A stretch of DNA of 64,000 nt from a virus (Duplodnaviria > Caudoviricetes). Below the pieces are notes generated by a model, which made no database searches, had not been told where the DNA came from, and saw nothing but the letters and a program-made list of their open reading frames with translations. Shown piece by piece: positions 2,285 through 20,992 of this stretch; position 1 is the first letter of the stretch, and each line of letters begins with the position of its first letter. Location of the stretch: IMG/VR virus record IMGVR_UViG_3300027759_000001; one strand, given 5' to 3'. A program made the position numbers and the translations under genes.

Positions 2285-3715
2285 ATGAGTATTAATAACG
2301 AAATAAAAAGAATGATGTCCCTACTTGAGTCTGAGTTGGGTAACGTAAAACCTTTAATAACTGAAGAGGATAAACCTGTTGAGGATTCGGTTGGACCATT
2401 AGAAAGATCAATTAAAGTGAATTGTTGGGCAAATAAAAAACCACAACCATATACCACAGATGGAGTAATACTAACTTTAGGTCAAGATTATGTTTATGCA
2501 TTTTCTAAAATTGCACCTGGAGTTAAAGCGGGAGATAAATTCTTAAAAGTTACAACTGCAGATGGAACTAACCTTTATGCGTTTGACAAACCATCTACAG
2601 ACCCTACGGCACTTAGTGCAAATCCTAAAGCATATTTAGCGGTTGTAAGAGATAAAAAGGTTACGGCAAGTAAGGATCCAAATTTAAATTATTTAACGGC
2701 CCATGGTTGGTATTGTAATGAATTTGATCAAAGTGTAAATGCGGTGTCTGATCAAACTAATTTAACTGGAGATCAACAAAGCCAAATTGAAACTTTGATA
2801 AGTGCGTTAGGTACTCAAGATACAGGATATACTTTTACTACAACAAAACCTGAAAACAGTAAAAACTTTGTTAAAATAGATTTAGCAACAGGTATAGGAA
2901 CGGATGGCGTTAGTTATCTTGATAAATTTAATTTGGCGGACAGAATCGGACCATTTAAATCTCAACCAGGTAAATTCTTTATATTTGCAAATGTTGGGAC
3001 TCAAGAAAAACTTTATGATATTCCTGTTGAGGTTGAGAAATTCTTAGTGACTCTTGGTTTTACAAGAACAAGGCCATTACCAGGTACTGCTGAAATTAAA
3101 ACTGAAACAACATTAAAAACATTATGTACGGGTTCAGGAAAAGCAATGTGTGATCCGGCAGTTATGGATTACATCAAGACTGATGGTGATAGACGTATTT
3201 GGAAAATGAATCCTCAACAATCAAAGGCGGCTGGAAATGTTTCATATAAAGATATAGTTGCAAAACAGGCTGAGTTAGGGAAAGGTGGAACAAAACAAGG
3301 GTTAAAGGCCATTGATAAACAAAAGGCAAATAAACCAGCTTGTCAAGCGGCAATACAACAATTATCAAATTGTGAAAGATATGGTACTGATGAAGATTGT
3401 GCTGAGGCATTAGGTTTGGCTGGAGTTGACGCATCTTATGCACAAGTATTAGATGATACTAAAAAATTAGTTAAAACTTGTGTTCAAAACGAAGTTGGTT
3501 TAGGAATGTTTTCAAAAAATATAAAAGCTCAATTAACACAGTTACAAGGATCAACAAGTCCTTATGGTTTAAGAGTAGCCGCAACACCAGTAACATCATT
3601 AGAAGAATCATTAAATAAATCAATTAAAAGTGTTATTAGTGAAACAATTAACAAAAACAACAACAAAAACTTAGATTCAATTATCAAAAATAATTTACGT
3701 AGATACATTAGGTAA
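2285..3715 (+). CDS. Hypothetical virion-associated protein
   Basis: 476-aa ORF with INNEIKRMMSLLE..LITEE N-terminus and LEESLNKSIKSVISE C-terminal motif. Confidence 0.6.
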   Translation: MSINNEIKRMMSLLESELGNVKPLITEEDKPVEDSVGPLERSIKVNCWANKKPQPYTTDGVILTLGQDYVYAFSKIAPGVKAGDKFLKVTTADGTNLYAFDKPSTDPTALSANPKAYLAVVRDKKVTASKDPNLNYLTAHGWYCNEFDQSVNAVSDQTNLTGDQQSQIETLISALGTQDTGYTFTTTKPENSKNFVKIDLATGIGTDGVSYLDKFNLADRIGPFKSQPGKFFIFANVGTQEKLYDIPVEVEKFLVTLGFTRTRPLPGTAEIKTETTLKTLCTGSGKAMCDPAVMDYIKTDGDRRIWKMNPQQSKAAGNVSYKDIVAKQAELGKGGTKQGLKAIDKQKANKPACQAAIQQLSNCERYGTDEDCAEALGLAGVDASYAQVLDDTKKLVKTCVQNEVGLGMFSKNIKAQLTQLQGSTSPYGLRVAATPVTSLEESLNKSIKSVISETINKNNNKNLDSIIKNNLRRYIR

Positions 3716-6663: not shown

Positions 6664-6735
6664 GGTTCCGTAGTGAAAGGGATATCACAGTAGATTTCTA
6701 ATCTTCTATTCCTGGTTCGAATCCAGGCGGGACTA
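6664..6735 (+). tRNA. tRNA-Arg(UCU)
   Basis: Cloverleaf GGTTCCG/CGGGACT, anticodon loop TT-TCT-AA, T-arm CCTGG-TTCGAAT-CCAGG; CCA not encoded. Confidence 0.9.
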
Positions 6736-6753
6736 CTATTTTTTTCAAATATG

Positions 6754-6784
6754 TTTGGTAGATCCAATTAATTTTGTATCTTTG
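6754..6784 (+). promoter_or_regulatory. Bacteroidetes sigma70-type promoter
   Basis: TTTG (6754-6757), 19-nt spacer, TATCTTTG (6777-6784). Confidence 0.75.
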
Positions 6785-6816
6785 TAGGGTACTCATTTAA
6801 AAAACTCAAAAAAATT

Positions 6817-7539
6817 ATGAAAAAATTATTAGTCGTTTCAATTACAATATTCAGTATCTATTGTTTCTTTGTTAACAGTGATGTCAACAAAGGGATGAGA
6901 CATGAATTTTCAGATCTTAAAGAAGAAGTTTCTGAAGAAATTAACAAATCTCTTACCGAGGATAACTCGGTTGGTTCTGGTGGGGATGATCCGACAAAAG
7001 AATTTTCTTCTGAGGCAAAAGAATACTTTAATAAAGTAGCTTACGGAAATGAGTTTAATAGTGGAAATACTTCATTGAAAAAATGGAACCAAGACGTGAA
7101 GATATATGTTGTTGGGGACAAACGTGATTACTTGATGTCAGAATTAAAAGATATTGTTAGTGAATTAAACGGTCTTATCTCCACTATTAATATCACCATT
7201 GTTTCTAATGAATCAGACGCTAACCTTATTGTTTTGTTTGGTTCGGCTCAAGAATACAATGAATTTGAATCTAACTCTGTTGGATACACAGATCAGAACC
7301 AAGGTTTGTTTATAGTATATGGTAGGGAAGAATTGACACACGCAACAATGTATGTTGATGTTGAAAGAACAAGTACTAATGATGGTCAAAAACACTTGTT
7401 ACGTGAGGAGTTGACTCAATCATTGGGTTTGTGTAACGACTCTTACGACTACCCTGAGAGTATCTTCTACCAAGGGTGGACTGAGACCACTGAATACACT
7501 GAGATTGACAAAGAGTTGATCCAAATGTTGTACAACTAA
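6817..7539 (+). CDS. DUF2927-like zincin-fold protein with N-terminal membrane anchor
   Basis: HLLREELTQSLGLCNDS motif, KKWNQDVKIY; N-terminal hydrophobic segment. Confidence 0.75.
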   Translation: MKKLLVVSITIFSIYCFFVNSDVNKGMRHEFSDLKEEVSEEINKSLTEDNSVGSGGDDPTKEFSSEAKEYFNKVAYGNEFNSGNTSLKKWNQDVKIYVVGDKRDYLMSELKDIVSELNGLISTINITIVSNESDANLIVLFGSAQEYNEFESNSVGYTDQNQGLFIVYGREELTHATMYVDVERTSTNDGQKHLLREELTQSLGLCNDSYDYPESIFYQGWTETTEYTEIDKELIQMLYN

Positions 7540-7540
7540 A

Positions 7541-7570
7541 AAACACCCCCTGTAAAATGGGGGTTTTTGT
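7541..7570 (+). terminator. Intrinsic terminator
   Basis: ACCCCC...GGGGGT hairpin flanked by A and T tracts. Confidence 0.7.
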
Positions 7571-7594
7571 TTTCCCTGATACTTATATAATAGT

Positions 7595-9535
7595 ATGAAG
7601 ATAATTGTCACAGAAGAACAAATAAAAGAAATCATAAATAATGTTTATGGTAATATATTATTTGAACAAACTAAACCGGTTCCTAAAAATCAAACTTATG
7701 CGACAACTCAAGATAGGTCGTTAACAAAAGATAGTTTGACTGGAGGGGAATTAAAAATACCAAAGGGTACGACATTTACTGCACACCAAAATGGTGATAG
7801 AAAACTCACAACGCCAACTTATACTGCCTCAGTGGATAGAATTACAAATGGTAAAAATAAACCATCAACTGTCTTTTATTGTAATGGGACAAATGCTGGT
7901 AAATTTTGGAATGATGCCTCAAAATCGTGGTATTATGACAAATCAAAAGTATTATCAGGTTACCTATCAAAAAATTTGTGTACTAAATCATTTGCGGATC
8001 AAAGTTATTCGGAAATTAAAAAAATTGATATAAAAGGACAGAGAACCCCGGCCCAAATTGCGAATTTCTTAAAGACCTCAAACACATTGGATGATAATGA
8101 ACCGGCAATTGAATTGGCTTTTTCTGAAATTAAAACATGGGAGAGATACAATTCAGTAAAAAAATATTTAGGTCAGGATCCGTATAAGTTTGTATCACAA
8201 TTTATAGACGCAAGAGAAAAACATGGTCCAATACAATCTGTAACAACTTCTTACAGTATTTTATCTAAAGGTGCCACATCCGATCAAAATAAAATTTTAG
8301 ACCCAAGTAAAGGGTGTCCTGTTAATGTAACCGCATCACGACCATCAGGGACTAATCAATATTTGGGAGCTATAAATTACATGAAATTCTTCAAGGGAGG
8401 TGCGGGAACACCAGGTGCTGATCCATTATTATATAGTAATGGGGTAACAGGGACATATGCTAAAGTACCGGATTTTGGATGGAATCTTAATCCCAAAACT
8501 TATCCCTACCCAAAATATTATGATCAAAATTGTTTATCAATTGCAAAACAAGATGCAAATTCGGAAATAAAAAAACAAGCGATAGACAAACGTAATCAAT
8601 CTGATATTAATAGACAAGACTACCTTCAAAAAAGAGATACTGAAACAACAAACGTTTCAAATTATCAACTTCCTGTTAAAAATTTTAAAAACAATTTATC
8701 ATTAAATGAATCGGACAATAAAAGTAAAGATTATAAAGAGATGTCAGACTTCAATCAATCATTATCAAAACAAAAAGAATTAATACCTAAGTATTGTACA
8801 ACACCATTAGAACGTCAATGGGATGCCGGTGATGGTAGTGGTAATTATAAGTTGAGAATGATTAGTATGTATAATCTATGTAAAGATTACGGTGGTTTAT
8901 GGGTATATGGGGCTGGTAGTTCATCATATACTTGTGGATGTAGGGATAATTCAAATCCGGCATTAACAACCGCAATGAAAACAGACACAGGAAATTTTAA
9001 TGCGGGTAAAGAAATTCAAAAACAACAAGGATCCACAAATTGGGGTAATGTACAAGCAAGATCAGTTTTATGGGGGGCGGCAGCACTTGCATCGGCGTTT
9101 ATTCCTGTCGTAGGTCCTTTTGTTGCTGCTGGTATTGGGTTAGGTGGAGCTGCTGATTTATGGACAAGTAATAAACACAAAGAGGCTGCAATTGTTGCTT
9201 TCTTTTCTTTACTACCAATGGTAGGTAAAATTCCAGGTGTTGGAACAATAAGTAAGGCTCTTGGTGAAGAGATGAAAGCCGCGGTACTTAATAGTGGGGC
9301 CTTGACTGAAAAACAATTGGAAACTTTAATAAATATTATTAAATATGATACTCAGGTATCAAAAGCTATGATACCAACAATTGAAGCTCAAGGTTTAGGT
9401 AAATTAGAGGCCCACATAATAAAAACCGCAATTAAAAAAACAGAGGAGAAAGTGATTGACCTTGCCGGTGGACCAACTTATGGTGGTTTGAAAAAAACTA
9501 TACTTAAGGCAGGATTAGAAAAAGGTTTATCCTAA
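7595..9535 (+). CDS. Putative internal/ejected virion protein with annexin-like segment and C-terminal hydrophobic hairpin
   Basis: MKIIVTEEQIKEII..LFEQ N-terminus; DDNEPAIELAFSEIK segment; VLWGAAALASAFIPVVGPFVAAGIGLGG..AAIVAFFSLLPMVG hydrophobic region. Confidence 0.5.
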   Translation: MKIIVTEEQIKEIINNVYGNILFEQTKPVPKNQTYATTQDRSLTKDSLTGGELKIPKGTTFTAHQNGDRKLTTPTYTASVDRITNGKNKPSTVFYCNGTNAGKFWNDASKSWYYDKSKVLSGYLSKNLCTKSFADQSYSEIKKIDIKGQRTPAQIANFLKTSNTLDDNEPAIELAFSEIKTWERYNSVKKYLGQDPYKFVSQFIDAREKHGPIQSVTTSYSILSKGATSDQNKILDPSKGCPVNVTASRPSGTNQYLGAINYMKFFKGGAGTPGADPLLYSNGVTGTYAKVPDFGWNLNPKTYPYPKYYDQNCLSIAKQDANSEIKKQAIDKRNQSDINRQDYLQKRDTETTNVSNYQLPVKNFKNNLSLNESDNKSKDYKEMSDFNQSLSKQKELIPKYCTTPLERQWDAGDGSGNYKLRMISMYNLCKDYGGLWVYGAGSSSYTCGCRDNSNPALTTAMKTDTGNFNAGKEIQKQQGSTNWGNVQARSVLWGAAALASAFIPVVGPFVAAGIGLGGAADLWTSNKHKEAAIVAFFSLLPMVGKIPGVGTISKALGEEMKAAVLNSGALTEKQLETLINIIKYDTQVSKAMIPTIEAQGLGKLEAHIIKTAIKKTEEKVIDLAGGPTYGGLKKTILKAGLEKGLS

Positions 9536-9576
9536 TATTATTTGATTAATATCAATAATTCAATTATACTATCACT

Positions 9577-9687
9577 ATGGAAGATATATTTGAAAAGATT
9601 CACAATGAGTTTATTAACTCTGAGGAATTTATAGCATACCTTAAAGAAATGATGGAATCAGAAGAAAAATTATACATGACAAAATAA
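9577..9687 (+). CDS. Small hypothetical protein (36 aa)
   Basis: MEDIFEKIHNEFINSEEFIAYLKEMMESEEKLYMTK. Confidence 0.5.
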   Translation: MEDIFEKIHNEFINSEEFIAYLKEMMESEEKLYMTK

Positions 9688-9695
9688 TTAACCAT

Positions 9696-9726
9696 TTTGC
9701 CAATTGAAAAAGATTTCGTATCTTTA
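9696..9726 (+). promoter_or_regulatory. Bacteroidetes-type promoter (variant -7)
   Basis: TTTG (9696-9699), 19-nt spacer, TATCTTTA; shares TTGCCAATTGA with the promoter at 11256. Confidence 0.6.
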
Positions 9727-9730
9727 CAGT

Positions 9731-10228
9731 ATGAAAGACACACTACCATATTGTACTACAGAAAAAGCAATCAAAGGTTATGAAGAATCCGTAATTGCAA
9801 AACGTGAAACCAACGACTGTGTTGTAAGAGCATTTGCATCTTGTTTTGATGTATCTTACGATTACGCTCACAAATACGTTAGAGAAAATTTTGGCCGTAA
9901 AGATCGTAACGGGACATATGGTACCGTAGATAAAATGACCAAACTTGCGGAAAATAGAAATCAAATAAATTACAAAAAAGTTAAATGTATCGGTAAATTA
10001 AACAATTACCGTAGTAGACACACTTTGGAGTATACTGTTAACGTAAAGGGTAAAAAAGTTAACCGTAAAATGACTGTTGGTACATTTACAAAACAAAACC
10101 CTGTTGGGACATTCTTTATGTTAGTTAGCCGTCACGCCTTCACAATCAAAGATGGTGTGGTGATCGGTAACCACGAGGATTCAACCAAGAAAAAACGCAT
10201 ATTACTTCATGCGTTTGAAGTAAAATAA
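9731..10228 (+). CDS. Conserved phage hypothetical protein (NDCVVRA...HAFTIKDG type, possible Cys-His enzyme)
   Basis: Start reassigned from the track's TTG (9704), which lies inside the promoter, to ATG 9731. Confidence 0.65.
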   Translation: MKDTLPYCTTEKAIKGYEESVIAKRETNDCVVRAFASCFDVSYDYAHKYVRENFGRKDRNGTYGTVDKMTKLAENRNQINYKKVKCIGKLNNYRSRHTLEYTVNVKGKKVNRKMTVGTFTKQNPVGTFFMLVSRHAFTIKDGVVIGNHEDSTKKKRILLHAFEVK

Positions 10229-10249
10229 TAAAAAATATTTTACAAATTG

Positions 10250-10353
10250 TTTGGCAAATCAAAAGTAATTACATATATTTGTAAGACAAACAACGGGGGT
10301 AGGAAGTGAGAGGTTGGTGTCCTACTCCCGTGAAGAAAGAAGAAGTTCATTGA
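10250..10353 (+). promoter_or_regulatory. Host-type promoter with leader hairpin and boxA-like element heading the tRNA array
   Basis: TTTG 10250-10253, 20-nt spacer, TATATTTG 10274-10281; 11-bp hairpin 10294-10330; GTTCATTGA 10345-10353. Confidence 0.75.
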
Positions 10354-10555
10354 AATAGTTTGAATAAGGTAACCACGAACCCACTGGTATTAGGCGTCTC
10401 TTGAGATGGAATGCAAGACAGAGTGTAAGTCCTACCTTATTCGTTTAAAAATATTGTGGTGGTAAGAAACGGGAAACTCGTAAAGTGCATTAACCTGTTG
10501 ACATAAGATGGTGAAACGAGAGTGTGTGTCAGCTACTTAACTACAAAATTAAAAT

Positions 10556-10709
10556 AGTCAGGTGGTGGAATGTTAGACACATAGTGACACGCACGGCAAC
10601 CTTGAATAAGTGCACTTTGAAAAGGCAATGCGAATGATGAAGAACACTACCTCACTGTGCGTAGGTAAAATTCAAAGTGTTCATGCAGGTTAGAATCCTG
10701 TCCTGACTA
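10556..10709 (+). ncRNA. tRNA-like RNA with a greatly expanded anticodon domain
   Basis: Acceptor AGTCAGG/CCTGACT-A, Leu-like D arm, T arm GCAGG-TTAGAAT-CCTGT, about 100-nt central insert. Confidence 0.6.
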
Positions 10710-10785
10710 CAACTAAGGAAGCAATACGAGAGTCCTGAATTGTACACAAAATATCCGTATTGACACCTCGGAAAGACGAGAATAT

Positions 10786-10859
10786 AGTTAATTAGCTCAG
10801 TTGGTTAGAGCAATTCCCTGATACGGAATAGGTCATTGGTTCGAGTCCAATATTAACTA
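10786..10859 (+). tRNA. tRNA-Ile(GAU)
   Basis: AGTTAAT/ATTAACT acceptor; ATTCC-CTGATAC-GGAAT anticodon arm; canonical D and T arms. Confidence 0.92.
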
Positions 10860-10864
10860 CATAT

Positions 10865-10937
10865 CGCGGGATGTGGAAGATGGTTATCCGCTCGGTCTCA
10901 TAAGCCGAGATCGCAGGTTCGAATCCTGCTCCCGCAA
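10865..10937 (+). tRNA. tRNA-Met(CAU), initiator-like
   Basis: CGCGGGA/TCCCGCA with C1:A72 mismatch; TCGGT-CTCATAA-GCCGA. Confidence 0.88.
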
Positions 10938-11010
10938 CTAAAAGGGTAGAATATTCGTAAGGGCCTTTCCTGAAAGATGGCTAGCTAGGCCCGTGTCTAC
11001 CCTTATTTTT

Positions 11011-11082
11011 GGTCCCATCGACTATCGGTTAGGTCGTCAGGTTTTCATCCTGGAAAGTCGGGTTCGATTCCCGGTGGGACTA
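11011..11082 (+). tRNA. tRNA-Glu(UUC)
   Basis: GGTCCCA/TGGGACT; TCAGG-TTTTCAT-CCTGG. Confidence 0.92.
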
Positions 11083-11162
11083 CTATAGCCAACCAAGCTT
11101 TACTACGATACGGGTTCATACCTGTGGGTTAGGGGTGACGATCAGGAAAGACTGATAAACTT

Positions 11163-11235
11163 GGTCCCGTGGTTGAATGGTTACAATTCCACCCTGTCAC
11201 GGTGTGAGATACGGGTTCGAATCCCGTCGGGACCG
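11163..11235 (+). tRNA. tRNA-Asp(GUC)
   Basis: GGTCCCG/CGGGACC-G; CCACC-CTGTCAC-GGTGT. Confidence 0.92.
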
Positions 11236-11255
11236 CAAAATAATGAATAATTTTC

Positions 11256-11286
11256 ATTGCCAATTGAATTAAATGTCATATCTTTG
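11256..11286 (+). promoter_or_regulatory. Bacteroidetes-type promoter inside the tRNA array
   Basis: ATTG, 19-nt spacer, TATCTTTG (11279-11286). Confidence 0.65.
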
Positions 11287-11306
11287 TTAAACAAACAACG
11301 AGAGAT

Positions 11307-11831
11307 ATGGAAAACTTGATAAACATTTTGAAGAAAGAGACTGAAACATTAAAAGTTCAGTACATTGCTAAAACTAAAGAGTGGGCGAAAGATCAGTTCG
11401 ACGCAATTATGGTTAGATCAGGTTGGGATAACCTTCAATGGTGTAACTTTTTTGGATTGACACAAGATGTTTATAACGAAGGAAGACCTTCTGAGTTCAA
11501 GTCATTCCCAAGAGGGTTTTACAACTCTAAACAAAGTCGTGAGTATAATAACTTCAAAGACAAAGCGTCAAAAGTTAAACAAATGGGTGTTGAGGGATTC
11601 ATGTTGGCTGAAGAGAAAAAGGCTGAGTTACACTACGAAGGATCTATCGTGAAACTTGCAAACCGAATTGATAAAAAAGGTTTGATCGTAGAGAAACTTG
11701 TTGTTGAAACTTCTCACATCGGTGTTAACATCAACACAACATTGACTGACGGTGAGAAAACGGTAAGAGCGTTCACGATCATCGCATCAGGTGAGATCCA
11801 AAGACCACACTACCGGTATTTGGTAAAATAA
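11307..11831 (+). CDS. Hypothetical protein embedded in the tRNA array
   Basis: 174-aa ORF with its own host-type promoter. Confidence 0.75.
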   Translation: MENLINILKKETETLKVQYIAKTKEWAKDQFDAIMVRSGWDNLQWCNFFGLTQDVYNEGRPSEFKSFPRGFYNSKQSREYNNFKDKASKVKQMGVEGFMLAEEKKAELHYEGSIVKLANRIDKKGLIVEKLVVETSHIGVNINTTLTDGEKTVRAFTIIASGEIQRPHYRYLVK

Positions 11832-11834
11832 AAT

Positions 11835-11966
11835 AGTCAAGTGGACGTAATGAGGGATGGTCCCAAGTCCCCAAGACACCACGGTTCATAAGCATTTGGA
11901 CGCGAGAAGTCGTAAGGTTGTCTAATCCGTCTTGAACGGTATTCGGTTCGAGTCCGACCTTGACTA
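11835..11966 (+). ncRNA. tRNA-like RNA with branched D and anticodon domains
   Basis: Acceptor AGTCAAG/CTTGACT-A; T loop TTCGAGT in TCGG/CCGA; inner stems GGAC/GTCC, CAAGAC/GTCTTG, TTGGAC/GTCTAA. Confidence 0.6.
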
Positions 11967-12061
11967 CAACACATAAACTTAAGTACCCATACCGCTAACG
12001 GTGGGCTAAGTAAGATACAATTTCGTACTGCGGGAAGTAGAATGCTTAAGAGTGTGTTTAT

Positions 12062-12145
12062 AGTCAGGAGTGTAATTAGACATCGGTGTTGATCCCATCC
12101 GTTGAGGATGGTTGCTCATTGTAGGTTCGAATCCTATCCTGACTA
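12062..12145 (+). ncRNA. tRNA-like RNA without a canonical anticodon arm
   Basis: AGTCAGG/CCTGACT-A; GTAGG-TTCGAAT-CCTAT; internal CCATCC/GGATGG hairpin. Confidence 0.6.
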
Positions 12146-12306
12146 CACGTTTCGGTTCATCACCGAATAGTATGTCCAATACGATGAGAAGTGAGGTGAT
12201 ACTTCATATGGAACTGCTGATATGACAAGGTTATATCTGGTTTGACTAACCACGGGGAAGATCAAAGAGAAGTGAAGAACCAACGTACTCTCGTAAGTTA
12301 ATTTAT

Positions 12307-12396
12307 AATCAAATGGCGGAATTGGTAGACGCTACTCATCTTATTGGGGAGACCGAGTTAAAAACGGTTGTATTGGTTCGAATCCTTTTTTGATTA
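12307..12396 (+). pseudogene. Degenerate class II (Leu-like) tRNA
   Basis: TGGCGGAATTGGTAGACGC D arm and long variable arm, but poor anticodon stem and mismatched T stem. Confidence 0.55.
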
Positions 12397-12400
12397 CTCA

Positions 12401-12474
12401 GGACTTTTAGCTCAGCAGGTTAGAGCACCGCACTCATAATGCGTAGGTCCATGGTTCGAATCCATGATGGTCCA
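12401..12474 (+). tRNA. tRNA-CAU, probably Ile2 (lysidine type); elongator Met not excluded
   Basis: GGACTTT/ATGGTCC-A; CGCA-CTCATAA-TGCG; the GGACYTTTAG start resembles bacterial Ile2 tRNAs. Confidence 0.8.
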
Positions 12475-12574
12475 CAATAATAATTAATAATTGGTTAATA
12501 AACACTATTTTTACATCAATATTAATTAACTAAAACTTTAAAATTTTATTTACGTTTATATTAAAAACACCATT

Positions 12575-13598: not shown

Positions 13599-13606
13599 AA
13601 AAATTT

Positions 13607-14440
13607 ATGAAAAATGATTTTATTTTATTAGAACACTTAAAAGTTTTACAACAAAAACTTTCATCTACTGAAGTACCCAATAGACCTAAATATCTAAATG
13701 AGTCTTCTTTACAAATTACAGATATATCTGGAGAATCAAAATTTAAAGGAAAACAATTTAGCCCTAAATATTTTTTAATACATCACACGGCAGGTAAAGG
13801 AACTCCTTCTCAAGTTGTTAAAATTTTAAATTGTAGACACTACAATGGTAGTTCAAAATGTACTACTTTAGGAATTCAATGGATTATAGATAGAGATGGT
13901 AAATTATATCAAGCGTTACCAAAAGGTTCTAAGGGTGCTCATGTTGCATCTCAAAAATCAGGTATGGAACACATAAATAATTCAAGTGCAGAAGGTGTTG
14001 AAATTATTGGGTCAAACGATGATGATATTACAATTAAACAATGTAAAACGGCATTGATATTAATTAAAAGTTTGGGGTATTCACTATCAAATGTGTTTGG
14101 TCATGGGGAGGTATCCACAAATAAACAGGCAACTGAAGGTAAAAAATGTAAAACATACGCCACTAAATATTGGAATACACCTGAAGACGAATTACCCGGA
14201 GGTAACGATAAAGAAGATGAAGACAAAAAAGACAATGTAACCACTACAACTACTGATACTTCCAAATCTTCCACTAATGATGAGGTTGATGTTGAAGATA
14301 ATACTAATGTGGCAACTAGCACCACAACTGAAAAAGGTAGTTTTCTTGACTTTTTTAAAAACCTTGGGGGTGTATTAAAAAAGAAAGAAGACTTAAAAAT
14401 AGAAGAAGACGTACAACGGATTAAAAATTTATTAAAATAA
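13607..14440 (+). CDS. N-acetylmuramoyl-L-alanine amidase (Amidase_2), endolysin or virion lysin
   Basis: FLIHHTAG, QWIIDRDG, GAHV, SAEGVE, GHGE motifs; Thr/Asp-rich linker. Confidence 0.85.
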   Translation: MKNDFILLEHLKVLQQKLSSTEVPNRPKYLNESSLQITDISGESKFKGKQFSPKYFLIHHTAGKGTPSQVVKILNCRHYNGSSKCTTLGIQWIIDRDGKLYQALPKGSKGAHVASQKSGMEHINNSSAEGVEIIGSNDDDITIKQCKTALILIKSLGYSLSNVFGHGEVSTNKQATEGKKCKTYATKYWNTPEDELPGGNDKEDEDKKDNVTTTTTDTSKSSTNDEVDVEDNTNVATSTTTEKGSFLDFFKNLGGVLKKKEDLKIEEDVQRIKNLLK

Positions 14441-14452
14441 TTACCAAACCCA

Positions 14453-14508
14453 TTTGTTTTATCGGATTAAATATACTATCTTTGTGGTATAATTAAAAAG
14501 TTCATTAA
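14453..14508 (+). promoter_or_regulatory. Host-type promoter with downstream boxA-like 9-mer
   Basis: TTTG 14453-14456, 20-nt spacer, TATCTTTG 14477-14484; GTTCATTAA 14500-14508. Confidence 0.7.
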
Positions 14509-14533
14509 TTTATTAACCTTTAAAAATCAACAA

Positions 14534-14680
14534 ATGAGTGATGAAACTCAAGTATTGGTTAACTATACTTTCTACTATTATGACAATAATGGTAAGAAAT
14601 ATACAACACCAAACTCATCTTTTGCTGAAGCAAGAGCGTATTACTACGGTACGGAAACAGTGTACATAGAAAAATATTAA
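14534..14680 (+). CDS. Small hypothetical protein (48 aa)
   Basis: MSDETQVLVNYTFYYYDNNGKKYTTPNSSFAEARAYYYGTETVYIEKY, behind its own promoter. Confidence 0.6.
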   Translation: MSDETQVLVNYTFYYYDNNGKKYTTPNSSFAEARAYYYGTETVYIEKY

Positions 14681-14698
14681 AAAAAAATTTACATATAA

Positions 14699-14850
14699 TT
14701 TGACAAATGAAAAAAATGTCTTATTTTTGTAAAACAAATTCGGAAACGTCCGAATAAAAAAAATAAAAAAGATTAGAAAAAATTTGGAAAATTCAAAAAG
14801 TATTCTTAACTTTGTAAAACAAATCGGAAACGTCCGATAACGTTCTTTGA
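14699..14850 (+). promoter_or_regulatory. Tandem P1/P2 host-type promoters, each followed by the same hairpin, then boxA (rrn-leader-like)
   Basis: TTTG-N19-TATTTTTG (14699-14729) and TTTG-N20-TAACTTTG (14783-14814); hairpins TTCGGA-AACG-TCCGAA and ATCGGA-AACG-TCCGAT; GTTCTTTGA 14842-14850. Confidence 0.8.
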
Positions 14851-14854
14851 AATT

Positions 14855-15768
14855 TTAGATATTATCCGTTCAGGAAACACAAAAGTGTCGGTGACATTAT
14901 CCACCGAGTAAATGGCAGAAAGTCCGCAGCTTGAGTGTAACTGATAAAGATATTGGGCCGTGTATAGTCCATAAAATAAACTACGAAAGTAGGATAAAGT
15001 GAACCCCCAAGTGTAACGGGTTTGCGTCTTGATGATCTTCGGATCATTGAGGTCAAGTACACAGGCGAGATACCATAAGATCTTTAGTACCGAGGCCAAC
15101 GGTGTAGGGAAAGTGATTTTATGACGAGGTGATGTGGGTCATCTTGTTGAGGAGGGAACTCCAATAGGAATAACTCGTAGGGACGTTGCAAGAATCAATA
15201 TTTCCAATGTTGTTATTGCGGATCCCAGTATCAGAGGATACTTAAAACCGAAAGGTATGTTAATGTACGGGTGGTGCCGTTATTAACCTTAACCAACTTC
15301 TACCAAGGGGTTAGTTTCGAAGTAGTCTTGAAATATTGAAATGGGGACATTTCACGGAGTTGTTTGGTATTTTGTTATTCAAAAGATAATGAAGCTTAAG
15401 ACGGACCACAACTTTGAACAATCCACGACACAAAAACTTTAATGTTAATGAAGTAACATTTATAAACTATAAAGCAAAAGTGTTCGTCACGATATAACGG
15501 AAGTTACCCACCTATTCACTGGCAGTCAGTGGAACGTGATAACCGCAAGTTTGACCGTATTTTTATGAAAAATCTCTAGGTCGTCGAAGACCGAATCAGG
15601 ACGCAATCTTGAGGAGACAGGAGTAGTAAGAGAGTAGTTGTATCGTCAAGGAGTGATTGGTCTAACCAATCGGTAATGAGTGTTACAGGACAAAATCCTG
15701 TGGATAAGAGTAGAACCAATAATGACTCAAAAGACACTTACAAAAACTGTAATCTCAGGTTTTTTTTT
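14855..15768 (+). ncRNA. Large structured non-coding RNA, about 900 nt (GOLLD-sized; family not identified)
   Basis: No credible ORF, GC-richer than flanks, many GNRA/UUCG-capped hairpins, dedicated promoters, ends at a T tract. Confidence 0.75.
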
Positions 15769-15796
15769 AACATAAACTTTAAATTCAATTGAAAGC

Positions 15797-15982
15797 ATGC
15801 AAAAATTAATTATCTTATCTATCGTTCTTTTTACGACAATCACTCTTATGACGGCTTGTGGTGAAAACGGAAATAGATCCACAACTGATGCTTCGACTGA
15901 AGTTTCAAGTGAAGATGTAACAAATGTATCGGATTCTACTTTAACAACAACTGAAGTTGTTTCTGACACAACAAAAAAATAA
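15797..15982 (+). CDS. Small Ser/Thr-rich lipoprotein
   Basis: MQKLIILSIVLFTTITLMTAC lipobox; low-complexity tail. Confidence 0.7.
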   Translation: MQKLIILSIVLFTTITLMTACGENGNRSTTDASTEVSSEDVTNVSDSTLTTTEVVSDTTKK

Positions 15983-16004
15983 TTTTACATTTATTTTAAA
16001 ACGG

Positions 16005-16030
16005 AACCTACCTTTTGGTGGGTTTTTTTA
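16005..16030 (+). terminator. Intrinsic terminator
   Basis: AACCTACC-TTTT-GGTGGGTT followed by a T tract. Confidence 0.8.
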
Positions 16031-16080
16031 TGCACTAAAATATAATATTCATACAACACTAAAATATAATTATAGTGCAT

Positions 16081-16108
16081 AAAAAAACCCCATCCGAAGA
16101 TGAGGTTT
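16081..16108 (-). terminator. Intrinsic terminator of tmRNA
   Basis: Minus strand AAACCTCATC-TTCG-GATGGGGTTT followed by a T tract. Confidence 0.8.
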
Positions 16109-16113
16109 ACATT

Positions 16114-16523
16114 TGGTGGAGGTGCGGAGGCTCGAACTCCGGTCCATAATATCCTGTCAGATAAGGACTACACGTTTAGGTTGGTATTTTCTAATACCCC
16201 AAAATATTTGGTTTTAATTTGACCAAAAACAAAGTTGATTTGTTCTTCACCATCGTAAATCAACAACCAATGGACGACTCGATTTATGGTTCAATTGTAT
16301 TCCACCATAAAGACTTCTGTTGCTAGGTTATGTGTCCACCGACCCCCCGTTTCCGTAAACCTCTTAGGCTACAGTAACTTCAGATTCTCTTAGTAAACCA
16401 AGAGTTTCCATTTTCGATAAAACGTCGCCGATTGTTTTTGTGAATCAGTTTTTAAGGAGATTAATTCAGTCTCCACGTGCCCTTTGTCTTCAGCCAATAC
16501 CTGTCAAATCCAAAAACACCCCC
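16114..16523 (-). ncRNA. ssrA: tmRNA (about 410 nt)
   Basis: 5' GGGGGTGTTTTTGGATTTGACAGG; acceptor GGGGGTG/CACCTCC-ACCA with G3.U70; T arm CGGAG-TTCGAGC-CTCCG; tag frame 16429-16364. Confidence 0.95.
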
Positions 16524-16554
16524 ATATGTCAAATAACTTATTATATTATAAATA

Positions 16555-16585
16555 CAAAGATAAGTGTAAACCTACAATAATCAAA
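16555..16585 (-). promoter_or_regulatory. Host-type promoter for tmRNA
   Basis: Minus strand TTTG (16585-16582), 19-nt spacer, TATCTTTG (16562-16555). Confidence 0.75.
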
Positions 16586-16606
16586 ATTTTTTGATATTTA
16601 TTTTAT

Positions 16607-17980
16607 ATGGAAAAGGGAAAATATAACCCATACGATGAGGATGTTGATATAATACAGGATGATGAGAACGTTAAAGTTGTTAAAACATTAAATTTAAAAT
16701 CTGCCCAATATTTTGGAACTGATTTTTATGGTAATGATAATTGGAATAGTCACTATAGAAATGGTGATCTATATTTTATAATTAGTAAAAAGGATAAAAA
16801 TATATATTCTATTTTTAATGATAAGGATGGTAGTGTTATTAGAGACCTTAATAAAAACAATGAAATTGTTACTGTAAACGATTTAAAACGTGCATTTTTA
16901 TCTTCATTAAAGATATTATCACCGTTGATTAAAGGTGGTAAAACATATGAATTTTTAAAAGAGGTTTCTAAAGGTTATGACCCTAAATGGAATGATAATG
17001 GTGACGATCCAATAATTGATGGGATAAACTTCAATGAAAGGAACCCAAGTAATTCTAAGGTTATTATTAAATTTGAAGATGATGAGGTTTTTTTGGACAC
17101 CATTAATGTTGAGTCTATTGATGATGTATATACTTATAGAACGTTTGTTGGTAATTACTCAGGTCGTGATACTGACACATATGGTGAGGAGGATAGTTGG
17201 AAAGAGGGTGAATTTATTGATTACCATTTTAACACTGAAAACCAACGTAAAGCTCTCCAAGTTGCCAAATTTTATGAAAATAGAGCTGAACTTAGGAGTA
17301 AAAAGAGCATTGCGGCTATTTTAAGTGATCACTTTGGGAGAATTGTTGATGATTTAATTTATGAGTACGCATCCAAATGGCAAAATTGTATTGATGATGT
17401 GGTTAAAGATATAATCTTAGGTGAGATTGCTAAACCATTTGATAAATTCGGTATAAAAGAAATACATAGAGGATATAGATTTGAAACAACTGTTGGAGTA
17501 TTATTACATTGGTATAGTGATGTTGAAAATGATAAATTTACGTTAAGTGAGTTATTAAATAAATTAATAAAACTTTATGATAAGAAAGATAGAGGTTATT
17601 GGAATGAGTTAATGTATGAAGTAAATTGTGATGATTGGGACGATAATGTTATGCAAGAGTATTTCTCAAAAAGTTTGGACTCAATGTTAGAAAAAGTACA
17701 AGAGGATGATCGTTTTATTAATATTGATGATTACAATGAAATGTTAGATCATGTTGAAAAAACATATGGGTATGAATGGAGACAAACAGAAAAGGATCCA
17801 AACCTACAATTTTTAATTTTAAAGGTCCAACCTGAAACTAATAAAGTTTTAGTTAACGTTCATAACGATAAGACCGGTAAATACCATCAAAGACTTTTGG
17901 ATGTTGATGGTTTATATCAATTGGACAATCAACCCGAATTATTTAATGAAAGAAGAATAGTAAGAAAAAAATTTTTATAA
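16607..17980 (+). CDS. Hypothetical protein
   Basis: 457-aa ORF after TATTTAT 16595-16601. Confidence 0.8.
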   Translation: MEKGKYNPYDEDVDIIQDDENVKVVKTLNLKSAQYFGTDFYGNDNWNSHYRNGDLYFIISKKDKNIYSIFNDKDGSVIRDLNKNNEIVTVNDLKRAFLSSLKILSPLIKGGKTYEFLKEVSKGYDPKWNDNGDDPIIDGINFNERNPSNSKVIIKFEDDEVFLDTINVESIDDVYTYRTFVGNYSGRDTDTYGEEDSWKEGEFIDYHFNTENQRKALQVAKFYENRAELRSKKSIAAILSDHFGRIVDDLIYEYASKWQNCIDDVVKDIILGEIAKPFDKFGIKEIHRGYRFETTVGVLLHWYSDVENDKFTLSELLNKLIKLYDKKDRGYWNELMYEVNCDDWDDNVMQEYFSKSLDSMLEKVQEDDRFINIDDYNEMLDHVEKTYGYEWRQTEKDPNLQFLILKVQPETNKVLVNVHNDKTGKYHQRLLDVDGLYQLDNQPELFNERRIVRKKFL

Positions 17981-18007: not shown

Positions 18008-18793
18008 ATGGAACGAAATTATGAATTATTGAAAGAGGTATTATCCGTACCTACAAAAACTTATCAGGAAGAAAGAATGGTTCAATTTATTACAAATTGG
18101 TTGACCAAAAACAATATTCCCTTTTATGTTGACGAAATGTCAAACATTTATGCAACAAAACAAACCGATGAAAATATATCATATTTCCCATGTGTGATTG
18201 CACATACCGATACGGTACATAACATTGATACAATTAATGTATTTGAAGAAATGTTACCTGACGCTCAGGGCAATGTAAAATTATCATTAAAAGCGTATAA
18301 CGACAATGACGAACCAACAGGTATTGGTGGTGACGATAAATGTGGTGTGTACGGTTGTTTGGAATTGTTAAATGAACTACCTAATTTAAAATCTGCATTT
18401 TTTGTATCTGAGGAAACAGGTTGTAAAGGTTCATTTAAGGCGGATCCTGAGTTTTTCACAAATGTTGGTTATGGGATACAATTTGATGCTCCTGAGAATA
18501 ATATGATTTCTGAGTTCTTAATGGGAAGAAGTATGTTTGATCGTGATAGTAAATTCTTTGAAGTTGGTGGACGATTGATTACAGAACACTTTCCATCAGA
18601 TACAAAATATCACAAACATCCTTACACGGACATTTATCCTATTAGAACCATGTTTAACATCCCGTGTTTCAATATTTCTATAGGATACTATAACTACCAT
18701 ACAAGAAACGAATACGTGGTCGTAGAAGACACTTATAATGGAATTAAAGTTGGTAAGATGATGATTGAGGAATTAGGTTACGAAAAACACTAA
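18008..18793 (+). CDS. M28/M20-type zinc peptidase
   Basis: AHTDTVH, GIGGDDKCG, EETG, HPYTD, GYYNYHT motifs; TATATTTG -7 element at 17996. Confidence 0.85.
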   Translation: MERNYELLKEVLSVPTKTYQEERMVQFITNWLTKNNIPFYVDEMSNIYATKQTDENISYFPCVIAHTDTVHNIDTINVFEEMLPDAQGNVKLSLKAYNDNDEPTGIGGDDKCGVYGCLELLNELPNLKSAFFVSEETGCKGSFKADPEFFTNVGYGIQFDAPENNMISEFLMGRSMFDRDSKFFEVGGRLITEHFPSDTKYHKHPYTDIYPIRTMFNIPCFNISIGYYNYHTRNEYVVVEDTYNGIKVGKMMIEELGYEKH

Positions 18794-18798
18794 ATAAA

Positions 18799-18822
18799 AA
18801 AAGGGAGATTATTCTCCCTTTT
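18799..18822. terminator. Bidirectional terminator between converging genes
   Basis: AAAAGGGAG-ATTATT-CTCCCTTTT. Confidence 0.75.
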
Positions 18823-20869
18823 TCTTTCTACTTCTTTTTTTAGGTTCTATTAATACTCCCTCTTCAAGATCAATTATTTGTTCATCATTTTCTGTTTTAA
18901 CAAATAACCTATAATCTTTGTTTTCTGTAACTTCACCTGTTAAGATTTTTTCAGATATTAAATCTTCTATTTTATTTTGAATTGCTCTTTTAATTGGCCT
19001 TGCCCCAAATATCTCATCAAAACCAACTTTTGAAATTAAATCAATTATTGAATTTTCATATGTAAAATTATACTTCATAGATTTTAGTCTTTTAACCAAA
19101 ATATCAATCTCTAATTTTACAATTTTATCAATGTTATCTTTATTTAGAGAGTTAAATATAACTACATCATCAATTCTATTTAAAAATTCAGGGGCGAAAA
19201 ATTTACTAAGTTCTTTTTTAAGAACATCTCTTTTTTGTTCTTCTTGGACAACTTCACTTGAGTTACTTGATTTGAAACCAACACCTGTACCAAAGTCTTG
19301 TAATTTTCTAACCCCAATGTTAGATGTCATGATAATCAAACAATTCTTAAAATTGATCTTTCTACCTAACCCATCAGTTAAATGTCCATCATCTAACATC
19401 TGTAATAATGTTGAAAATATATCTTTATTTGCCTTCTCAATCTCATCAAATAAAATAACACAATAAGGTTTGTTCTTAACTTGTTCTGTAAGTTGTCCAC
19501 CTTCTTCGTGCCCTACATATCCTGGAGGAGATCCAATTAATCTTGATATTGTGTGTTTTTCTTGGTATTCGGACATATCCACACGGATAAGATTATCCTC
19601 ACTACCGAATATTTCTTTTGCTAATTGTTTTGCTAAGAATGTTTTACCAACACCTGTAGACCCTAAAAAGATGAATGAACCGATAGGTCTATTTGGATCT
19701 TTAATTCCAACACGATTTCTTCTAATTGATTTAGATATCTTACCAACGGCTTCTTCTTGACCAATAACGTTAGTGTTTAATGTTGATTCTAAATTAACTA
19801 AAGAATTTTTTTCATCAATATTTATCTTACTCACAGGTATTTTAGTCATATTTGAAACTACCTCATAAATTATCTCTTCTGGAATACCACGTTTACTTGT
19901 TTTAAGTTCATTATCAAATTTTTTCTTTTCGTTTTCCAAATCAGTTAAAATTTTACGTTCTTTATCACGTAATTCTGCGGCTTGTTCGTAGTTTTGTTTT
20001 TTAATAACATCTACCTTTTCTTTTTTGATATTTTGAGCATCCTGTTTTAATTTTTCAATAATTTCAGGAAGTTTAATGTCAATTTGCATTCTTGATCCAA
20101 CCTCATCCAAAATATCAAACGCCTTATCAGGAAATTCACGATCTGTGATATAACGATCTGCCAATTCTACACATAATAACAATGCCTCATCAGTATAGTT
20201 AACTTTGTGATGTTCTTCATATTTCCCCTTACTTTGTTTAAGGATTTCAAAGGTTTCTTCTTTGGTAGATGGATCAATAACAATTTTTTGGAATCTTCTT
20301 TCTAATGCTCCATCTTTTTCAAAATGTCTACGATACTCATCTAAAGTTGTTGCCCCAATACATTGAAGTTCACCACGAGATAATGCAGGTTTGAATATGT
20401 TAGATGCATCTAAAGAACCTGAACTATTACCAGCACCAACCATTGTGTGGATCTCATCAATGAAGATGATGATATTTGGTGCCATTTGAAGTTCCTCAAT
20501 GATAATCTTCATTCTTTCTTCAAATTGACCTCTATATTTTGTACCTGCAACAATAGAGTTAATATCTAAAGATACGATTCTTTTATCTGATAAATTTTTT
20601 GGACATTCACCATTATGTATCATCATTGCAAGTCCCTCAACAATTGCAGTTTTACCCGCACCTGGCTCACCAATGATTATTGGGTTATTTTTCTTTCTAC
20701 GAGATAATACTTGGGCAATTCTAAAAATTTCCTTTTCACGACCAATTACAGGATCTAATTTTCCTTCACTTGCCAATTTATTTAAGTCCTTACTAAAGTT
20801 ATCTAAAACTGGTGTTCCCCCATCGGTCTTTTTTTTACCTTTATCATTTTCATCCATAAATTCAATCAT
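18809..20869 (-). CDS. clpC: ClpC-type Hsp100 ATPase lacking the N-terminal Clp-repeat domain
   Basis: Two AAA+ modules (GEPGAGKT..FIDEIH; GSTGVGKT..FDEIEK), UVR-type middle domain (YEQAAELRDKE); start reassigned to MIEF. Confidence 0.9.
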   Translation of the reverse strand: MIEFMDENDKGKKKTDGGTPVLDNFSKDLNKLASEGKLDPVIGREKEIFRIAQVLSRRKKNNPIIIGEPGAGKTAIVEGLAMMIHNGECPKNLSDKRIVSLDINSIVAGTKYRGQFEERMKIIIEELQMAPNIIIFIDEIHTMVGAGNSSGSLDASNIFKPALSRGELQCIGATTLDEYRRHFEKDGALERRFQKIVIDPSTKEETFEILKQSKGKYEEHHKVNYTDEALLLCVELADRYITDREFPDKAFDILDEVGSRMQIDIKLPEIIEKLKQDAQNIKKEKVDVIKKQNYEQAAELRDKERKILTDLENEKKKFDNELKTSKRGIPEEIIYEVVSNMTKIPVSKINIDEKNSLVNLESTLNTNVIGQEEAVGKISKSIRRNRVGIKDPNRPIGSFIFLGSTGVGKTFLAKQLAKEIFGSEDNLIRVDMSEYQEKHTISRLIGSPPGYVGHEEGGQLTEQVKNKPYCVILFDEIEKANKDIFSTLLQMLDDGHLTDGLGRKINFKNCLIIMTSNIGVRKLQDFGTGVGFKSSNSSEVVQEEQKRDVLKKELSKFFAPEFLNRIDDVVIFNSLNKDNIDKIVKLEIDILVKRLKSMKYNFTYENSIIDLISKVGFDEIFGARPIKRAIQNKIEDLISEKILTGEVTENKDYRLFVKTENDEQIIDLEEGVLIEPKKRSRKKKGE

Positions 20870-20921
20870 ATCTTTTTGTTTTATTAAAAAATAGTAAATC
20901 AAGTTTAAAAAGTATACCTTT

Positions 20922-20992
20922 TGACAAATTGTCATGGTAAAAAAATACTAACTGACATTTTGTCATATTTTATGGTTTGGCACATATTTAGT
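20922..20992. promoter_or_regulatory. Paired TGACA-N3-TGTCA palindromes and a sigma54-like TGGCAC element in the divergent intergenic region
   Basis: TGACAAATTGTCA 20922-20934, TGACATTTTGTCA 20953-20965, TGGCAC-ATATTTAGT 20978-20992. Confidence 0.55.

Follow-up and report, generated by a model that had tools for sequence, protein, structure and literature searches.

Positions 14699-15768 (+ strand) of the 64,000-nt stretch of phage DNA analysed here, referred to as the window, very probably comprise a gene for GOLLD RNA together with its promoter and leader, carried by a freshwater jumbo phage that infects Bacteroidota. The ornate region is a further member of a known RNA family with a solved structure, and not a new class. 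The less ordinary point of the case lies upstream of the RNA itself, where the phage promoter and leader could have been copied from the ribosomal RNA operons of the host, a reading that we hold tentatively.

In an Rfam scan of the whole window the GOLLD model RF02032 was the sole large match, extending over 15355-15761 (+) with a score of 290.6 bits (gathering score 150 bits; E = 5e-82); a tmRNA was also matched. The alignment covers model positions 1-416 of 416 and all of the model helices are present, and a full-length match at 290 bits makes an artefact very unlikely. Apart from GOLLD, no large Rfam RNA, ROOL and OLE included, was matched in the window at the gathering threshold; a more permissive search across 14400-16100 (E up to 1), which included the upstream 500 nt, returned nothing else that was credible. 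That these 500 nt are not matched follows from the model, since the conserved 3' half is the only part of GOLLD, a family reportedly described by Weinberg et al. in 2009, that Rfam models. A preliminary description of the region had wavered between a GOLLD-class and a new giant RNA, and had foreseen that a strong Rfam match would confirm the RNA while reducing its novelty. This is how matters have turned out: the GOLLD guess is borne out by the full model at 290.6 bits and by a 5' domain that is common to many phage GOLLD loci, whereas the same match takes away most of the novelty of what had been called an undescribed system.

The 3' domain (15355-15761, +) is defined by the full-length RF02032 match and by alternation of a loop between CG and GC across homologs. 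An A/U-rich variable linker at approximately 15412-15478 aligns, with low posterior, to unpaired model positions 60-135, and there are two palindromic loops, UCGA at approximately 15584-15587 and CGCAA at approximately 15602-15606. Comparison of 61 3' domains among the matches listed indicates that the first loop is either UCGA, as in the window, or GCAA (self-complementary CG or GC) in the environmental, non-Firmicutes members and that the second, CGCAA, is conserved. The loop named L21a in the work on the env-38 GOLLD likewise alternates between self-complementary GC and CG, and the loop named L21b is conserved (PMC12286853); by the numbering of that paper, the two window loops appear to match the kissing loops L21a and L21b.

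Scanning IMG/VR with a conserved GOLLD 3' motif gave at least 83 loci, which with three fetched earlier made 86 loci to be searched. Among the matches listed, the 5' half of the window RNA (query 14815-15354) is matched by nhmmer in 54 of the 86, mostly at full length and with E values from 1e-137 to 3e-12, nearly all of these loci being IMG/VR phage contigs; loci of the Lactobacillales and Streptococcus type match the window, again among the matches listed, in the 3' half alone. Thirty-six distinct 5' halves from the matches listed make up alignment A1.

In lake metatranscriptomes this GOLLD RNA is plentiful, and its protein-coding neighbours are nearly silent. Metatranscriptome contigs from four lake studies, aligned to 13600-17000, cover approximately 14851-15768 at a summed depth of 100 to 40,000, against 0-5 over 13600-14739 and 0-7 over 15766-16107, these being assembled contigs that pool related strains and from which strand, exact ends and true levels are not readable. 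Where a run leaves part of the stretch uncovered, this does not show that the sequence is absent. DNA carry-over is argued against by the silence of the flanks, and the earlier label 'highly expressed' fits a contig depth of this order over the RNA when that of the flanks is at most 7.

The likely 3' end is a run of nine T (15760-15768, +) directly after the last GOLLD stem, the T tract with which the region had been said to finish. Contigs of two of the metatranscriptome studies end at 15768, with a depth of at most 7 beyond, and such contig ends are a weak hint to the ends of the RNA. With a stem of only 3 bp in front of it, the T run does not qualify as a canonical intrinsic terminator. Five or more consecutive T are found within 25 nt of the Rfam end in 17 of 55 distinct homologs (among the matches listed), and in many relatives a proper terminator hairpin follows after another 15-50 nt. 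In the window, the next terminator-like hairpin comes only after an inserted 61-aa ORF that resembles a lipoprotein. This ORF (15797-15982, +), which stands between GOLLD and the tmRNA gene and has a lipoprotein-type signal (…LMTAC), occurs in the related locus L026 but not in L001; with an endolysin 1.4 kb upstream, a role as a spanin-like or exclusion lipoprotein is conceivable.

Upstream of the RNA, pattern scans located two tandem promoters of the Bacteroidota type (TTTG-N19/20-TAnnTTTG), at the place where two host-type promoters and a boxA had been proposed. The first, P1 (14699-14729, +), has TTTG at 14699-14702, a 19-nt spacer and TATTTTTG at 14722-14729, and is followed by the leader hairpin ATTCGGAAACGTCCGAAT (14738-14755, +) and then by an A-rich tract with no boxA. 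The second, P2 (14783-14814, +), has TTTG at 14783-14786, a 20-nt spacer and TAACTTTG at 14807-14814, with a predicted start site near 14820. Each module runs from TTTG across 19-20 nt to TAnnTTTG and on to TAAAACAAAT and a small hairpin, and only the second continues into ACGTTCTTTGAAAT. The close relatives L039, L026, L040 and L083 retain the P1 module. In L001, the nearest relative, one hybrid module joins the P1 -33 region to the P2 leader, from which it follows that the two-module state is polymorphic; the two modules align at 80% mean column identity, L001 included. A repeat search of 14600-14900 found no direct repeats. One contig of low depth (run X19) connects 14690 with 14804.

The leader hairpin ATCGGAAACGTCCGAT (14823-14838, +) occupies the boxB position of an rrn leader and is supported by covariation, being found in 31 of 36 distinct homologs (among the matches listed) in five complementary versions of the stem (CGGA/UCCG, CAGGA/UCCUG, GAGG/CCUC, UAGG/CCUA and AAGG/CCUU). 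It is followed by the boxA-like decamer GTTCTTTGAA (14842-14851, +), which occurs in exact form nowhere else in the 64-kb window and whose core is invariant or nearly so in the 36 homologs of A1. Across 44 homologous upstream regions among the matches listed, a promoter stands at the P2 position in nearly all, many have two or three in tandem, and the succession of promoter, TAAAACAAAT, hairpin and GTTCTT(T/A)GA is kept in nearly all clade members. Beyond the decamer, the motif TATCC (14863-14867, +; within TAGATATTATCC) is at least 90% conserved in A1, this leader motif 3' of boxA reading TAGATTATCC across the clade. A covarying partner was sought for TATCC and none was found; two candidates, GGATA at approximately 14993 in the 5' core and GUGGAUAAG at approximately 15695 in the 3' domain, were rejected, neither of them covarying with it.

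A resemblance to ribosomal RNA leaders is apparent when the presumed host group is considered. A contig scan with the promoter end plus boxA gave 10 matches, none of which is an rRNA leader and one of which is a GOLLD locus (L094, in a lake Bacteroidetes MAG). A 16S search took in 41 genomes sampled from the class of a MAG titled 'uncultured Bacteroidetes', which was reached via a GOLLD-bearing contig, and 19 of the 41 had a 16S gene with usable flank. In 14 of these 19 genomes the coding strand carries exact GTTCTTTGAA at a distance of 78-137 nt upstream of 16S, and the leader copies account for 14 of the 15 exact decamers in 80 kb of 16S loci, both strands counted. The sampled rRNA leaders have a TAnnTTTG promoter, then a hairpin, then the decamer, which is the order seen in the window. 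What had been proposed as an rRNA-operon-like leader with boxA consequently holds as a sequence match, with an identical decamer and the same order of elements as in the host class; the Nus antitermination that goes with a boxA is the part that we infer, from the identity of the decamer and its position.

If this resemblance is taken at face value, it is conceivable that the Bacteroidota-phage branch of GOLLD has become a 'stable RNA' in the bacterial sense: a host rRNA promoter and leader, with tandem promoters, hairpin and boxA, would have been copied, and the host Nus antitermination machinery would transcribe GOLLD and perhaps aid its folding. This falls somewhat short of being the probable explanation. 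Were it true, a replicating jumbo-phage genome with strong promoters in tandem could divert Nus factors from host rRNA synthesis. A search of the open-access literature for GOLLD linked with boxA found no paper other than unrelated plant papers, and a full-text search with the decamer returned only unrelated primer tables, so the rRNA-style leader of this branch is possibly previously undescribed.

Alternatively, the RNA would still be GOLLD, but the hairpin and GTTCTTTGAA would have a role other than antitermination that strong promoters of stable RNAs have in common: they might act on the initial transcript or on RNA stability, mark a cleavage site for an RNase or be recognised by a phage regulator. 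Only some 25 nt separate the decamer from the predicted start site, a shorter distance than in the rRNA leaders sampled, and the leader bin 14740-14853 has a far lower metatranscriptome depth than the RNA body, which would be expected of a leader that is removed, although a processed-off leader is also typical of rRNA. Furthermore, none of 24 Firmicutes-type GOLLD loci has the exact decamer within 1 kb upstream, which means that it is dispensable for GOLLD in general. Against this stand the identical decamer, placed at a fixed distance upstream of 16S in 14 of 19 genomes and all but missing from the rest of those loci, and its close match to the classical boxA core, TGCTCTTTAACAA in E. coli. 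In addition, the other long untranslated unit of the phage, the tRNA island, is headed by a similar arrangement, its start (10251-10354) having a promoter, an 11-bp hairpin and a one-mismatch copy of boxA, GTTCATTGAA. On balance we consider it unlikely, without being negligible, that the leader elements serve such another purpose.

Between the leader and the 5' domain core lies a variable stem-loop region (14868-14937, +; A1 columns 139-240), which exceeds that of the nearest relatives by about 32 nt and is replaced by a shorter variant in one metatranscriptome contig. There follows the 5' domain core of 417 nt (14938-15354, +), which is supported by nhmmer and RNAalifold and lies outside all Rfam models. 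The RNAalifold consensus of A1 has 102 pairs, 74 of them with compensatory changes on both sides. The region had been described as packed with hairpins, and nine of the ten that were listed hold: in the 5' half, covariation accompanies CTAC-GAAA-GTAG (14981-14992), the stem at 15026-15053, the hairpin at 15124-15147, GGAG-GGAA-CTCC (15151-15162), ACC-GAAA-GGT (15247-15256) and the hairpin at 15338-15353, while CACTG/CAGTG, GATTGG/CCAATC and ACAGGA/TCCTGT each coincide with a stem of the RF02032 model. The exception is the long-range helix, which at corrected coordinates pairs 15196-15204 with 15330-15338. It is a perfect 9 bp in this sequence; across the 36 homologs, however, only 68% of cells are paired and there is no compensatory pattern, whereas a local hairpin that competes with it (15196-15200/15208-15212) reaches 89% pairing and does show compensatory changes. 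The long-range helix was rejected as unconserved and less well supported than the local hairpin.

These features also bear on the idea of a new giant RNA class that merely shares some motifs with GOLLD. It could draw on the 5' 500 nt, which lie outside every Rfam model, and on the enlarged variable hairpin at 14868-14937 that is peculiar to this RNA, but the GOLLD model is matched in full at 290.6 bits and is itself a model of the 3' half only, loci with a matching 5' half all have the GOLLD 3' half, and the sizes agree with those of the solved GOLLD. The chance of a separate class is accordingly minute.

The region is non-coding. The longest ORF that overlaps 14855-15768, which has a TTG start and lies on the minus strand at 14806-15099, has 97 aa, in keeping with the earlier view that there is no credible ORF here; and GC content is 0.37-0.44 across the region as compared with 0.25-0.31 over the preceding 600-700 nt and 0.29-0.33 immediately after it, so that it is indeed richer in GC than its flanks. 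That the region is a protein gene or a decayed one with incidental hairpins has this 97-aa ORF in its favour, but is scarcely credible in the face of compensatory changes in 74 base pairs, indels of 1-2 nt inside conserved blocks of the homolog alignment, an RNA depth thousands-fold over that of the neighbouring genes, and a fold of 14855-15768 (914 nt) with a minimum free energy of -242.5 kcal/mol and a z-score of -6.15 against 20 shuffles.

The genomic surroundings are those of a large phage and include translation-related genes. The nearest record is a 108-kb IMG/VR contig with the same GOLLD-tmRNA arrangement at about 90% identity; it is rated 37% complete, which implies a jumbo phage. The DNA runs that contain the stretch are mostly from freshwater. 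An endolysin of the amidase type lies directly upstream and ends 260 nt short of P1, and seven tRNAs lie further upstream, at 6664-12475. Among the matches listed, a tRNA is present in the fetched flank of 20 of 35 homologous loci, and several clade members are directly 3' of tRNA-Met. One member of the same clade, in the 634,780-bp uncultured phage LR745206.1 (positions 2335-3352), stands directly behind tRNA-Met and is without its own promoter there, yet AGTTCTTTGAAAT is retained in the interval from the tRNA to the GOLLD core. The tRNA island of the window also contains GC-rich non-coding stretches of 450-500 nt (in 10251-10785 and 11832-12300), which hold tRNA-like T-arm and acceptor ends, for example GGTTCGAGTCCGACC and GGTTCGAATCCTATCCTGACTACA, that were called neither by ARAGORN nor by Rfam.

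On the other side, the tmRNA gene (16114-16523, -; Rfam 105.8 bits, missed by ARAGORN) is convergent to GOLLD at a distance of 350 nt, an arrangement also seen in L001. It has its own Bacteroidota-type promoter (16584-16555, -), without boxA, and reaches a depth of 30-140 in the metatranscriptome contigs. Further downstream there are an M20/M42-like peptidase (18008-18793) and, 2.3 kb from the tmRNA, a ClpB/ClpC-like double AAA+ ATPase of 708 aa (18809-20935, -; PF07724 at 2e-67, phrog_4871).

Taken together, these observations suggest how the GOLLD gene might be expressed. Host RNA polymerase would start near 14820 at P2 and near 14735 at P1. In E. coli rRNA operons, boxA and Nus factors let the polymerase resist Rho-dependent termination. 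By analogy, we lean towards the view that the hairpin and boxA of the phage leader recruit host factors of the NusB/NusE type, so that polymerase would resist Rho and pauses over some 0.95 kb of untranslated RNA. Transcription would end at the T run, at 15768, and the 831-nt body (14938-15768) probably adopts a two-domain fold and, by homology to env-38, forms an RNA-only cage of 14 copies. The published leads on the use of such cages are encapsulation, tRNA association and a ribosome pull-down (PMC12286853). The neighbouring tRNA island, tmRNA and endolysin, together with this pull-down, make a late-infection role tied to the translation apparatus our best guess, albeit a doubtful one.

The case adds context to GOLLD, in that freshwater Bacteroidota phages keep a conserved rRNA-style promoter and leader for it, and in that the GOLLD gene in lakes gives rise to a very abundant RNA, stands among translation-related phage genes (tRNAs and tmRNA) and lies beside a lysis gene. 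The leader offers experimental handles in the boxA, the hairpin and a possible dependence on Nus factors, and the finding points to a host group in which GOLLD biology could be explored.

Within the GOLLD family the closest known counterpart is env-38, an environmental member solved by cryo-EM as a 14-copy cage with D7 symmetry (Kretsch et al., 2025; PMC12286853). Env-38 has 833 nt in two domains, 1-420 and 421-833, with a disordered linker at 497-538 (PMC12286853). Compared by these published domain boundaries, the window RNA agrees in size (417 + 414 = 831 nt as against 833 nt), and at an offset of about 14934 the linker 497-538 falls on the variable linker of the window at approximately 15412-15478. 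The two-domain layout, the GAAA loops and the palindromic kissing loops are shared, as is a phage location near tRNA genes, with members of the clade found, as is env-38, behind tRNA-Met. The window copy differs in having its own tandem promoters and a leader of about 120 nt with hairpin and rRNA-type boxA, in its enlarged variable hairpin before the core, and in its location between endolysin and tmRNA instead of inside a tRNA array; the 14-mer, known for env-38, is a prediction for the window RNA.

The GOLLD RNAs of Firmicutes, from prophages of Lactobacillales and Streptococcus (e.g., Streptococcus phage Javan345), have a homologous 3' domain, one of them (L003) scoring 275 bits to RF02032. 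Their 5' halves, in contrast, are unlike that of the window, GTTCTTTGAA is found within 1 kb upstream in 0 of 24, and in several (L003, L005 and others) the T run is replaced by a conserved tRNA-like sequence (…CAGGTTCGAGTCCTG…) directly 3'. In the case of bacterial rrn leaders, with their P1 and P2 promoters, boxB-boxA-boxC and Nus complex, the likeness lies in the tandem promoters, the hairpin, the decamer that is identical in the presumed host class, and a long, highly expressed, untranslated product downstream. The differences are that a boxC equivalent was not identified in the window and that the promoter spacing is shorter; nor was a flanking stem for excision of the RNase III type found around the GOLLD RNA. 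Finally, ROOL is unrelated to GOLLD in sequence and fold (PMC12286853), but it too is a large, ornate, phage-borne RNA that is encoded near tRNAs, and its RNA-only cage would have a counterpart in the one predicted here.
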